From Eledone cirrhosa (lineage: Eukaryota), in assembly GCA_964016885.1 (NCBI GenBank), contig OZ024742.1:272490001-272554000 (forward strand): 64,000 bases of DNA, in the 5' to 3' direction. Of the stretch, positions 1,690 through 64,000 are shown piece after piece. Both the position numbers and the translations under genes were made by a program. The notes under the pieces were generated by a model that did no database searches, was not told the DNA's origin, and worked only from the letters and a program-made list of their open reading frames with translations. The stretch's first letter is position 1; every line of letters begins with the position of its first letter.

Positions 1690-1870
1690 CTCAGATTTAC
1701 TTTTTCAGTTTCAGAAGATCCCGTTAAGGGGGAAAGCAGCGATTCTTTACTTAAACTTTAATCTTATATTTTAATAAATATTGGCTCTACGGTTCCTATA
1801 TATTTGATATATATTTATCCTTATCGAGCCTTTCTGGGATTTTAGTCTTCAAATTTATTATTATCACTAT
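1690..1870 (+). mobile_element. Solo pseudo-LTR/3' end of PLE family A, carrying the CAGAAGA hammerhead-like fold (1707-1757)
   Basis: Homologous to 34040-34120, 40320-40470, 41790-41885, 52650-52720 and 62600-62770; ends in (TA)n. Confidence 0.7.
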
Positions 1871-1989
1871 ATATATATATATATATATATATATATATAT
1901 ATATATATATATATATATCGGATAGTGTTGACGTGTGCCACTTCGCTGGTAAGTTTTTTGTTAATTTTGTATGCAAAAAACAGGAACAT

Positions 1990-4900
1990 TTTGTCAAAAA
2001 ATATATTGTTTCGTAGATTAAACCCCACGCTGAATTGTCAGCTGAGCGGTAATCTCAATTTTCGCCCCGCCGCGGCGAAAATGTTATTAAAAAATGTTTC
2101 CAAAGATTTAATATTTTTGCTATCGATAATCGCTAGCTTAGTAGAAGGAACGCTAATGGATGCTGACGAAGAAAGTAGAGAGAGAAAGGCAGAGAGTAAT
2201 GTTGCCGTAAATTCTGCCTACATAGGTGTCATTATGGAGACACATAGTGACAACAAAGTTTTGTTTTGCCAAGAAGCCGAAAAATGCAACTTACAAAATG
2301 GACCATACAGCTTACAACAGACATAAAAACACAAAAAATGAAACAATTGACACAACTACAAACGGAAAAACCGACAACTACACAACAAGATCAACAACAC
2401 CAAAAAGATAACATTTTTACAGAAACAGTCACAAATATTAATAATCTCAAACTCCGCATGTATTGGCGTCACCATGGAAGCCGATAAGAACAACAACAAT
2501 GAAAACAAGATTGAACCACACAGTGTACAACAGACACCAAAAACAACAGAATATAAAATGATTGAAACAACTACAAACGGAAAGACCGACAACCACAACA
2601 ACAACAATAACAACACCAACAAAATAACTTTTCCAGAAACATTCATCAAGAAACACAAGAGTTCAAGGATCTCGATATCTACAATGCGAGACAGATGCTC
2701 TCTGAAGCAAAGGAGTTTATCACTTTCGGTGAAAACGGTGGGTTTCAAATAAACCCACCCCCAGAAATTCGTCTTGATACATTTCGAAGAACAGTTACCT
2801 TCAGAACTGTTTCAAATGAAACAAAATTGAAGCAACATTGAAGGAGATATTGCCAAACATTGACTTTATGCAGAGGGCCAAATAGTACGGGAGTTTTTCG
2901 GTACTCCTCAAAAGCGAGGCCCTTGCACAAATATACTCACTGACACCAATACTGTCAAAAAAATACACCTTTTTCCCTACATACCTGGGAAAAAGGACAC
3001 AGAAAATCAGAATTGCAAACATACCACCAGATATTAATATTTGGTCGATATTGGCAGGATTTTTAGAGGAAGGAAAATACACCATTCTCTCAATCAAAAG
3101 GTCAACCAGACACACATGGTCTGGTACACATTTGGAGATTCTGGTGCAAATGAGCGCAGAGATAATCTCCAAAGTACCCGAAAAAGTGCTGGTGGACAAC
3201 AACAGCAACATAAGCAATTTGGTTGAAGGAAGAAAACCACACTGATTTCGATGTAACAGCACAGCACATCTAAAGGCCTCCTGCCCTTTACAGACACATT
3301 TACCCCCCCCCCCCACACACACACACACATACTCTTACCAACTGTTACATACTGTTACCAACACCAACTACAAAACAAGCAACACTACAACAACAACACA
3401 CAAAACAAGCAAACGCACCAAAACAAACACCCACTCAATCAACAACAGCAAGAAAAACAAACAACTACCCTGAAGAATACAGTCCAACCCCATCACACTC
3501 CATCCAACACTGCCACAAACACACACAGACAAACCATCACCACACCACACACCCCTACCGCAAGCTCCTGATGACGAATCATCGTCAGACGAGGTTATTT
3601 CTTCATCTCCAAGTGAAGATGAAGGACAGCATCGAAAATTAAAAACCCCAAAAAGGTACCACAAAGCCACGAAAACAAAGATCAGCAATACCAACACACA
3701 AACACCGACACAAACAACAACACAAAAACGCGACAATCAACCCCCCCCCCTCACACACACACATACACTACCAGCAAAACAAACACCAACACAACCCCAA
3801 GCACAAGCACCCACCATAAAAAGAAAACTCCCGGACGAACAACAAACTAAGAAAACATAACAAAAACACAAATGACAGTACGCATATACCAACACAAACA
3901 ACAAGAGTTTGATGGAGGTCATATCCAGAAACCCCAAGGTGGAGACGGAGTGCGAAACTTTCTTTAAAGCAGAATCGTCTCCATACCTCAAGCTAATATT
4001 GATTTCGATGGAAAGATATAGCGAACTAAAAACAAACTTTTCGCAGGACGTGGACAACCCCTGTCAAAAACCCATAAACCGCGTCCTGTTAATATGTTTC
4101 CCCACCCACACAACACCCGCACCAGCACCCAAATCGAGATTGAACAACACGATTTCCAGGAAACGAAAAGGTAACTGCACCTTTTCGTCCGTTTTCGCAA
4201 ACTCTTCTCCACCAACATAACTAATTTACGAGTTGAAAGCCTGAATATGCGTAGCCTAGGGATGCCCTGGAAACAAGGCCAACATTTAAACGATCTAGGT
4301 TACACGGTATGGATGTGATAGCCATCACCGAGTCCAGGATCCACAACAGGAAGCAACTAACTCCCATCTTCAATGACTTTGAGATCTACGCATCTCTATG
4401 TCAGCCAGGAGGTGGAGGGGGAGTGGCTATCATGTTTCGGAAAAACCTGTACATTCGAAGTACAGCAAGTACACTTGGACCTGGAGGGTAGAATGGTAGT
4501 CCTGAACAGTGTTGGAGGTGGAGCTTTCAGACTGGTGGCCGTTTATGCCCCGACTGGGCAATTGCGGGCCAGACATCTTTAAGCGTCTAGAGTATTTTCT
4601 TGGAACGCCTCGCTCCTCGCTTTTAGTGGGGGACTGGAATGGAATCCTAGAGGCATGATGAGACTATGTAGGATAATTTTCGAGTAGAGTGGGGTGCAAC
4701 AGCCTCATAAATGTAATCAGTCAATTCCAACTGGCCGATAGGTATCGACTATATTTCCCGACTGCACTGCAGTGGACGTGGACAAATCCCAGCGGGGCAT
4801 CTAGATCGTATTTAGACAGGTTCTTTTTTAGAGAGAGAGAGACAAGAAGATGCTAAGCTGTTCACAAATGCACATCGTTGCCTATTTAGACCACAAACTA

Positions 4901-61750: not shown

Positions 61751-62599
61751 CGACACGCATACATATATATATACACGTACATATATATTCATACATACAT
61801 ACACATATGTATAAATATATATATATGAGAAAAACCACAAACCCTTCTCTCAATTCTACTTTTGAAAAACAGAACTGTAAAACCGGTAAGGGAACCAAAT
61901 AAATATATATTAAAAAAAAAAAATAGATTCCAGTTGCATTTTCGATATCATCTTTTTTCCTTATACTTTCACTCGGGATTTTTCATTTTGTAAAAATATA
62001 TATATATATATTAGCATATATAAGGGTGGTCTTGCCGAACACACCACGTTTGGGGAATACCGTATTGGGGAGGTTATTTAAGCCATAGATGGCTATCTCA
62101 TTTCTAGAGCTGAGTGAACAGACATGATCGAAACCAAAAACAGAAAAAGCTGGAGATCAATCAGGGAGGGTTTTTTCTGGGAGGAGTGAAAAGGCCTTCG
62201 ATTTAATTTGAGCAAATATATATATATATATATATGTATGTATGTTAAAAGTAAACAGACATAACAACACAGTGGGTACAGTATATGGAAGGGATATATT
62301 AGGTTAACGCTTGATATAGCAGGAAGAGGGTCTTCACGTTTCGGAAGGAGTCTTTCAGCAGGAGGAAGAATGAGAAAGATAGATTGAGGGAACGGGCGGG
62401 TTGTAATTGGAACATATCTCTTTAGATAAAAATAACAGGTCCATTCATGTTCACATGTCTTATATATATATATATATATATATATATATATATATATATA
62501 TATATATATATACATATATATATATATATATATATGTGTGTATGTATATATATATATATATATATATATATATATATATATATATATATGTATAGTCAT

Positions 62600-63340
62600 A
62601 ATAATAAATGTGAAGACTAAAATCCAAAAAGGGCTCGATAAGTATAAATATATATCAGATGTATAAGAACCGTAGAGCAAATATTTATTATAATACAGAT
62701 TAAAGTTTAAGTAAAGAATCGCTGCTTTTACGCTTAACGGGATCTTCTGAAACTAAAAAAAGTTATTCTGTGAACGCAGAATTAAATATTTCTAAAAATG
62801 TTGCAACCGAAGGAAGACAGGAAGAAAATACTTTGGTTTGTGGAAACGTTACCTGGCAAAGAACGGAAAAAAACGAAGATAATACGTCATTAAACGAAGA
62901 TAATACGTCAAAGACAAAACCACGTTTATGATAGAAATGAAGTCGTAGACTAATATTCTATTAAGTGGTTTATGGGGACGTTCTCTGGCAATGAACGTTA
63001 AACACGAAGATAATACGTCATTATGTGGAGCGTAGAGAACAATTACACGCAAATACAAAACCACGTAAATGGTATAACTGAAGTCGTAGACTAAAATTCT
63101 ATTTAGGAAACCGAATGATTCTCGGCTTCAGAGTTAAGAATAAAGTAAATAAAATACATAGGTAATTGAAATTAAATATATACATACACGCATCCATATA
63201 CGTGCATACACAAGCATACGCGAAAATACTCGCCATGGGTATGCAAATACAAGCACATACACAAAAAAACACGCACGCATACACATAACCCACGCGACGC
63301 CTCTACCCGCACACATACGAAGTATACACCAAATACACAT
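62600..63340 (-). mobile_element. PLE family A pLTR/3' UTR copy (others at 33660-34120 +, 39590-39910 +, 52650-52990 -, 63840-64000 -)
   Basis: Aligns with 40310-40970; HHR-like fold at 62704-62754. Confidence 0.8.
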
Positions 63341-64000
63341 AAATATATATATAAAAAAATATATCATATTGAGTTATAATCTCGAAATAGTTTATAACTC
63401 AATAATTATATTCTCGGCTCCATACTTAGAGCTAATTTTAGACCCATAAAACTGGCTGCTATTTTTAGCGGCACGAGTATGAGGCGATTTAGGCGCTGTG
63501 ACATGTGCGTTTGAACAACACATATTTCTCAGTCGTCTTAAGTATTTTGATGTGAAAGGTACGAATTTCCTGGATATCCGCAGAAGAGCAGAGGGAAGTG
63601 ACTTTCACTTAATTGTTGCGAAACAAATGTAGAATTTGTCTGGGTATCACGGCCATTGCCAATATAGGTTTGTTATTTTTATTGATTTTTAAATCGAGAC
63701 AGGCAAACCATATTATTTTCAATTAGTATTTTTCAACCTAGCTAACTTGGTCATTTGCAATTCGAACATATGTATACTTTAATCAGTGTTCATCCCTCTC
63801 ATATATTAATTTGTAAAAATATATATATATGTGTGTGTGTATACATAATTAAATAAACTTATATAAATATACACACATAAATACGTATATAACGCTCGCA
63901 CACACATACCTACATGTAAAAACACATATTTTCGCGGACGTACGTCATCCCAAACACGAAGTACACATATACACACACCCTACATACGTACGATCCCGTA

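Follow-up and report, generated by a model that had tools for sequence, protein, structure and literature searches.

Hammerhead motifs and their Penelope-like carrier elements between (TA)n tracts of the Eledone cirrhosa genome

The stretch analyzed here (hereafter "the window") comprises 64,000 nucleotides of the Eledone cirrhosa genome (GenBank assembly GCA_964016885.1, contig OZ024742.1, positions 272,490,001 to 272,554,000 of the forward strand), AT-rich animal DNA in which 71 (TA)n tracts reach at least six units. The islands between such tracts are very probably the hammerhead ribozyme-bearing ends of Penelope-like elements (PLEs), mostly of the Hydra clade, together with short non-coding tandem units. 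In two of the families the U at core position 4 is replaced by A (A4, or U4A), and one of these belongs to an apparently young, autonomous element. A sequence-only reading of the window had proposed a large radiation of ribozyme-bearing PLEs and retrozymes, which is supported genome-wide.

Hammerhead motifs in the window

A type I hammerhead descriptor requiring the core, the 3-8 pair and three stems matches the window 14 times, far more often than 60 local dinucleotide shuffles (mean 0.43, maximum 3), and a looser descriptor returned the same 14 matches against ~0.4 in 40 shuffles. By core, nine are CUGANGA, three CAGAAGA and two UUGAAAA. Rfam gave 73 matches on the window, including a single, sub-threshold hammerhead (HH9, 29192–29262, 28.5 bits vs. 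52).

The sequence-only reading had counted ~16 families and ~35 copies; the number of families holds, but site by site only about half of the ~36 copies are intact. Among the 25 copies for which it gave coordinates, 14 are intact, three atypical and eight decayed members of real families. A full core and three stems are present at 15610 (15610–15727, minus strand, stem II insert of 77 nt, counted as intact although stem I requires a 3-nt bulge), 23829 (23829–23917, plus), 25430 (25429–25507, minus), 26649 (26649–26693, plus, a minimal type I motif), 27001 and 27114 (a U3-A8 inverted pair spanning 27001–27151, with 27001–27038 on the minus and 27114–27151 on the plus strand), 29197 (29192–29262, plus, stem I interrupted; the sole Rfam hammerhead match), 35625, 35955 and 36303 (identical motifs at 35620–35694, minus, 35949–36023, plus, and 36297–36371, plus), 42894 (42887–42966, minus), 55659 (55658–55747, plus), and 58754 and 59245 (an inverted pair spanning 58749–59332, with 58749–58840 on the minus and 59241–59332 on the plus strand). 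The atypical copies are 55130/55131, which has lost 1 nt of stem II; 32280 (32278–32321, minus), whose stem I is weak in all 14 family copies aligned; and 46446 (46443–46480, plus), which keeps a U3-A8 core and stems II and III and has no stem I in cis, a single stem I pair being present in 12 of 12 aligned copies. Decayed copies lie at 19012, 23421, 52375/52376 (a relative of 26649), 29028/29029 and 61854/61858 (relatives of the 27001 pair), 29675 (29675–29805, minus, with a long stem II and stem I lost), 46853/46855 (a relative of 32280) and 57964, the last in a palindrome joined at the core (57897–58173) with a stem I broken here and intact elsewhere in the family.

All seven reported copies of the CAGAAGA family were located, two of which satisfy the descriptor: 1707–1757 (plus, slightly decayed), 34059–34109 (plus), 40409–40459 (minus), 41810–41860 (plus), 47302 (plus, truncated), 52657–52707 (minus, decayed, of an older subfamily) and 62704–62754 (minus, decayed). 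An eighth A4 motif in the window, 63570–63652 (plus), belongs to a separate family. A four-copy "family K", reported without coordinates, could correspond to either of two window families, one made of palindromes without the CUGANGA half (25808, 36531, 42535, 44319), the other of decayed motifs (31951, 42396, 49666, 62330) with a full core in family members at other loci. One motif had been overlooked: 54095–54200 is the 3′ half of a long-stem II hammerhead, intact at locus L088. No hammerhead was found in a direct repeat of 624-bp period between TA tracts at 30630–31623.

Abundance and diversity across the genome

To place the window in its genome (2,995,841,428 bases), we used a sample of 98 stretches of 10 kb (979,600 bases) at evenly spread, round coordinates, so that the draw is not strictly random. 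In this sample the descriptor matched 105 times, 76 of them with CUGANGA, compared with 8.7 and 0.3 in 10 shuffles. One tandem array accounts for 17 of the 105; counting it once, the density is 77 motifs per Mb (bootstrap 54–101), which extrapolates to ~2.3 × 10^5 motifs genome-wide before a background of ~5 per Mb is subtracted, or a rounded ~2 × 10^5. An exact genome-wide count of one core subclass (stem II of 11–40 nt, six alternating bases in stem III, pairing not demanded) was 111,628, vs. 3,808 for the reversed pattern. At 14 motifs in 64 kb, the window exceeds the genome mean two- to threefold, and it is ordinary for this genome, not special.

The 259 matches in own-genome DNA examined form 61 clusters, or 54 once the seven TA-, TG- or TC-core clusters had been excluded as background ahead of any family count; these core classes occur at about shuffle level and include one 8-copy satellite. 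A Chao1 estimate on the sample's 40 clusters is 94, a rough value since some background clusters are included. The cores of the 54 clusters are C3U4-G8 (39), U3U4-A8 (10), C3C4-G8 (3) and C3A4-G8 (2), and the type I core consensus (C3U4G5A6N7G8A9, G12A13A14A15.1, U16.1H17) is present in 39 of the 54 clusters and 14 of the 25 located copies. The C4 core (CCGANGA) was seen at L121:641-755, L125:955-1006 and L179:1397-1443, and in three metagenome relatives. The expectation that variants would escape standard searches was borne out by U3-A8 and A4 cores, by C4 as well, and by stem II inserts of 12–107 nt across the 54 clusters. Stem III is perfectly palindromic in 33 of the 54, a share partly built in as the descriptor rewards palindromes. 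The median distance from a sampled motif to the (TA)n tract that follows it is 115 nt; 64 of 74 sampled matches are within 200 nt upstream of one, vs. 31% of random positions.

Three stems with covariation were found, except for stem I of the 46446 family. In the 22 aligned copies of the 35955 group, 94.3% of cells are paired and 28 double changes were counted vs. 10.7 in shuffles, none of 500 shuffles reaching as high; the alignment of the second A4 family has 96.5% of cells paired, and the predicted lowest-energy fold of 63570–63652 is a full three-way junction.

Carrier elements

Judged by their motifs, the open reading frames (ORFs) beside the hammerheads are mostly those of Hydra-clade PLEs, because RWR, DKT (in place of DKG), the CxCx5C linker and CxxC-E-N-CxH, all present in intact natural copies (L174), fit the definition in PMC8557442. 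The copies are inserted in (TA)n as expected of this clade, and the CCHH finger is absent from the translations compared with its definition. Intact copies of the CAGAAGA element encode a single ORF of 709 aa from the first ATG, with the reverse transcriptase (RT) followed by a C-terminal GIY-YIG domain, and frames of 706–713 aa are open in seven of seven fetched copies (chosen for long frames). Named protein relatives come from the corals Montipora and Porites and the jellyfish Sanderia. Among metagenome relatives, 56 of 77 loci carry a hammerhead match, nearly all on the sense strand, and the 71 matches have CU (63), UU (4), CC (3) or UC (1) at positions 3 and 4, and never CA.

In the window, Pfam identified RVT_1 in five of 21 frames and GIY-YIG in none of the 21, and a profile built from the CAGAAGA-element protein and 24 relatives matched ten separate remnants. 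As the sequence-only reading had it, the sense hammerhead lies downstream of the endonuclease, here at 15610, 19012, 26649, 34059, 40409, 42894 and 46446, and five window families besides CAGAAGA adjoin, on the downstream side, endonuclease remnants of Hydra or other PLEs. Thus 15610–15727 follows a Hydra endonuclease remnant at 16461–17098, 42887–42966 lies 859 nt downstream of another at 43815–44264, and 26649–26693 follows a non-Hydra remnant at 26190–26387. A full-length but decayed Hydra-clade element occupies 18959–23962 (minus), with an inverted repeat, a 5′ pseudo-LTR (long terminal repeat), a broken ORF (20657–23233, minus) with an RWK motif, and a 3′ pseudo-LTR; an RWK motif was read in the remnant 22673–23251, and of its hammerheads 19012 and 23421 are decayed and 23829–23917 is intact. 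For the CAGAAGA family, 34059–34109 is the 3′ end of an element with an endonuclease remnant at 32401–32616, an RT-endonuclease remnant lies at 47986–48951 (within 47302–48951, minus), and a 5′-truncated element at 40304–41884 (minus) retains its endonuclease (41394–41783), a GT-AG intron in the 3′ region (41309–40557), the hammerhead 40409–40459 and an inverted arm with 41810–41860. Three remnants look like non-Hydra PLEs (2–1328, 26190–26387, ~44700–45990); the last, upstream of 46443–46480, has a broken CX4CxxC linker as read from the sequence, which suggests a Neptune-like element. The missing stem I of the 46446 family might be supplied by a partner strand or by splicing.

Head-to-tail non-coding repeats were found with units of 310, 319, 348, 496, 522, 528, 561 and 592 bp. 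Those of 348 bp (35494–36408, with an inverted arm, holding the three identical hammerheads) and 528 bp (54747–55858, plus) in the window, and of 310 bp at L086, carry one type I hammerhead per unit, as in retrozymes. The L086 array (L086:3850-9330; G000:C3:55,003,850-55,009,330) contains near-identical units, 12 forward and five inverted, with a hammerhead in each, and is bounded by two (TA)n tracts; the 319-bp unit in L174 is a relative with common flanking sequence but a U3-A8 core. The non-coding arrays have (TA)n flanks and inverted arms like the adjoining PLE copies; the short tandem units are likely mobilized by the PLEs.

Palindromic insertions at 25808–25984, 36531–36716, 42535–42725 and 44319–44501 are centered in the stem II hairpin, the CUGANGA half being gone; this family has 33 BLAST matches in the 980-kb sample and a full copy with a UUGAGAA core in L065. 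Such centering suggests that the ribozyme's own stem II hairpin joins two cDNA arms.

Ends, cap signature and splicing of the CAGAAGA element

Ends were mapped in 30 position-ordered CAGAAGA copies (some loci overlapping), counting from C3, with the predicted cut after +40. The 3′ ends fall at +68/69 in 20 copies and at +154/155 in ten, and head-to-head insertions often combine one arm of each kind. The other end falls at −7 to +3 in ten of the 30 copies and at +22 to +30 in six; no copy starts at the predicted cut.

Genome-wide, the base preceding the first base of stem I is G in 1,226 copies vs. 984 for A and C together, and all 30 G copies examined start exactly at stem I with varied sequence upstream, so that these are not internal substitutions. 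An extra 5′ G is established as a copied cap in other retroelements. Here too it is likely the trace of a copied cap, and with this interpretation transcription of the CAGAAGA mRNA would begin with the first base of the ribozyme, and the start codon would follow 204 nt later with no intervening ATG. Because ~1,200 CAGAAGA copies begin at this base, many solo islands are probably truncated copies rather than separate elements. The earlier notion of solo, non-autonomous units thus holds only in part: islands standing alone in the CAGAAGA family derive by truncation from an autonomous element, while certain other families consist of true head-to-tail non-coding units.

A GT-AG intron of ~710–745 nt is absent at six junctions in four loci, and ends 104–107 nt before the core. 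It has two donors, and was located at window positions 40557–41309 (minus) and in L015, L127, L294 and L319, the spliced copies being genomic. As intron-less junctions occur among the copies, spliced and unspliced RNAs have both been copied.

The two A4 families

In the first A4 family (CAGAAGA), an exact 33-mer occurs genome-wide 14,687 times with A4 vs. 47 times with U4, and the 3′ tail has 39,443 exact occurrences. The element is ~3.2 kb long, including a 3′ region of ~1 kb that holds the intron, and in L176 and L178 both repeats flanking an intact ORF carry the A4 core. Judging from its protein, the family is young, because the 150 matches listed are 94–100% identical and many lie in long open frames. 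The second family (63581; in the window 63360–63815, plus, with the hammerhead 63570–63652) has A4 in 70 of 71 exact matches. Its non-coding unit measures ~496 nt, 13 of the 27 sequences examined contain a tail-to-head junction, and the neighborhood of its copies, in the loci examined, yielded no ORF belonging to the family. Lacking U at position 4, both are classed as hammerhead-like core variants and not as canonical members. DNA kinship between the two was considered and rejected, the best match being 18 nt of AT-rich sequence outside the ribozyme (E 0.006).

Outside position 4 the core is preserved in both families, as are the three stems, and the second has one compensatory pair in stem III (five of 20 copies). 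In both, the stem III insert is 15 nt long, A4 occurring in two of six long-stem-III clusters vs. none of 48 short ones (Fisher p 0.010). The A4 ribozyme is 95–100% conserved vs. 75% upstream; truncated and spliced copies and the choice of seed confound this comparison, which is given no weight here.

A proposed mechanism and its alternatives

We propose the following route to the islands. The GIY-YIG domain would nick (TA)n, and RT would begin copying at one of two fixed RNA sites, located 29 and 115 nt beyond the predicted cut. Priming would often occur on both strands of the target, giving head-to-head arms, and copying would usually halt early, often at the cap or at a ribozyme hairpin, so that only the ribozyme end remains; the outcome would be short ribozyme-bearing islands between TA tracts. 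In the CAGAAGA element, with stem I presumed to open the capped mRNA, cleavage would take the cap off, and short units cut at both ends could be copied as tandem arrays. Most families, with a short and palindromic stem III, would cut only as dimers (dimer model in PMC4209133), but the long stem III of the A4 families is predicted to form in the monomer. There, U4A would slow cutting and leave uncut RNA available for translation and copying. From the sequence, we lean toward slow monomeric cutting in the A4 families, and regard no cutting at all as quite possible.

It is tempting to go further and speculate that U4A is a working, deliberately slow core that arose in two ribozymes freed from dimers by a long stem III. 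Lying within 50 bases of the 5′ end of the capped mRNA of a very active Hydra element, it would then time translation, copying and decapping or circle formation relative to one another. With ~2 × 10^5 hammerheads in 50–90 families, the genome would hold the densest ribozyme repertoire we have found described and be a natural library of variant cores and stems. Taken as a whole, we consider this proposal unlikely, if worth stating.

Several results weigh against our reading of the motifs. The number of compensatory pairs does not exceed that of shuffles in either alignment (143 and 408 of 500), and the kinship of copies inflates the other covariation measures; in the 35955 group, double changes exceed shuffles, but the five covarying pairs do not. 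The CAGAAGA motif is not hammerhead-folded at minimum energy, and none of 14 tested folds has a z-score beyond −1.9, with one of the 14 cut off-register. For part of the 30 G-start copies, the inverted partner could be the source of the G. The link between A4 and long stems consists of two families only, three of the six long-stem clusters being single matches.

The strongest rival holds that the A4 motifs are catalytically dead, their fold being kept as a transcription start, a protein-binding site or an RT-initiation landmark, and A4 having been fixed by a founder copy; this we judge plausible, though short of probable. It would account for the absence of copies starting at the predicted cut (0 of 30) and for the capped, hence uncut, CAGAAGA RNA that was evidently copied, and three published results, two of which also weigh against our main reading, agree with it. 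In a mutational scan all single CUGA changes were poorly active (PMC9901934), which fits a dead A4 core no less than a slow one, in vitro insertion of a lizard Penelope element did not depend on ribozyme activity (PMC11167929), and Naiad elements amplify without canonical hammerheads (PMC8557442). What a dead motif leaves less well explained is the retention of the remaining core and three stems in both families, including the compensatory stem III pair, the tail-to-head junction of the 63581 family, as expected from a circular or tandem template, and the viability of a viroid with a U4C core (PMC3088659).

Alternatively, most solo islands could be independent non-autonomous retrozymes instead of truncated Penelope copies, which is possible but in our view rather doubtful. 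Head-to-tail non-coding repeats of eight lengths (310–592 bp) point that way, as does the lack of a PLE ORF within 1.8 kb upstream of most clusters, a further count against PLE ends. Yet the loci examined are short and old ORFs decay; in the one family fully resolved, CAGAAGA, short islands are 5′-truncated or cap-started copies, and five further window families lie downstream of PLE endonuclease remnants.

A third possibility, very unlikely, is that A4 creates a splice acceptor (CAG) in the core, so that splicing disables or rebuilds the ribozyme. A pyrimidine-rich tract precedes this CAG, the element has an intron just upstream of the core, and the Drosophila Penelope intron ends at helix I (PMC4209133), but none of the six spliced junctions (four loci) uses it, all joining 104–107 nt upstream of the core. 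Finally, that the motifs are chance folds of AT-rich repeats has a negligible probability and is refuted for the CUGANGA and A4 classes by their enrichment over shuffles and the 111,628 vs. 3,808 count, with double changes and (TA)n proximity also opposing it, even if single folds are not more stable than shuffles and the TA, TG and TC classes stay near shuffle level.

Other features of the window

Decayed LINE-type elements with RT matches lie at 4200–7400 (plus), 10087–13529 (minus) and 34346–35350 (plus). The second terminates at an (ATT)n tract and has a frame with a motif of restriction-like endonucleases. A short SINE-like repeat of a kind known from octopus genomes has four copies (1470–1607, 20229–20362, 52128–52254, 59966–60094).

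Relation to known systems and significance

Hydra-clade PLEs are known to target (TA)n and carry hammerheads, and include Hydra-1_Obim of Octopus bimaculoides (PMC8557442). The elements described here share with them the C-terminal GIY-YIG, RWK-type and DKT motifs, CxCx5C linker and CxxC/CxH around E and N, as well as the (TA)n target, a sense hammerhead near the 3′ end and frequent U10.1-U11.1. They differ in that the Hydra hammerheads in File S2 of PMC8557442 are all CUGA whereas the young family here is CAGA, that one octopus Hydra family is described there and this genome has many, and that Hydra elements are generally <3 kb, compared with ~3.2 kb and an intron-bearing ~1-kb 3′ region for the CAGAAGA element. 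The minimal metazoan PLE hammerheads of PMC4209133 are likewise type I, with a palindromic stem III, many families per genome and U3-A8 variants, and their solo copies were interpreted as truncated PLEs; counts there are ~3,300 in Schistosoma, 4,000 in coelacanth and 9,000 in Xenopus, vs. ~2 × 10^5 here. Animal non-LTR retrozymes (PMC7229834; bioRxiv 10.64898/2026.07.22.740005) resemble our tandem units in their few-hundred-base non-coding repeats with one type I hammerhead per unit and in the PLE origin proposed for them. Unlike those described, the arrays here have (TA)n flanks and inverted arms. The axolotl has 126,247 motifs in two families in a 28-Gb genome (PMC7229834); the 3-Gb genome studied here has about as many or more, and they fall into at least 54 clusters. 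The Poseidon element of Anolis, PAc (PMC11167929), also has two internal RT start sites giving a "tail", both-strand extension and an uncut RNA template; its ORF begins inside a ribozyme with a canonical core, whereas the CAGAAGA element has its ATG 204 nt downstream of the presumed 5′ end of the mRNA, and a spacing of 86 nt between its RT start sites sets it apart from PAc as well.

Natural core variants U3-A8, U10.1-U11.1 and U4C are published (PMC3088659). U4A is absent from the main text of that paper and from the part of PMC4209133 covered, and in the open literature, supplementary figures of both papers aside, we found no report of a natural U4A or CAGANGA core. Nor did the open literature yield a report on octopus hammerheads besides PMC8557442; a 2026 repeat annotation of Octopus vulgaris lists 31 recently active PLE families, with ribozymes unmentioned in the main text. 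PLE hammerheads, the TA preference of Hydra elements, an octopus Hydra family, U3-A8, the stem II U-U, U4C, retrozymes and six-figure counts are thus already published, and what looks new here is the hammerhead density, the number of families, the fixed A4 and the cap signature.

In vitro, PLE hammerheads show poor cleavage, and one reconstituted system could do without them. On the question of their role, this genome offers a young autonomous element with a core change expected to cripple its ribozyme and with transcription likely beginning at the ribozyme, as well as copies in the tens of thousands, whose ends keep a trace of the RNA that was copied. A natural active U4A, if true, would widen the consensus used in hammerhead genome searches, nearly all motifs here having been missed by Rfam.

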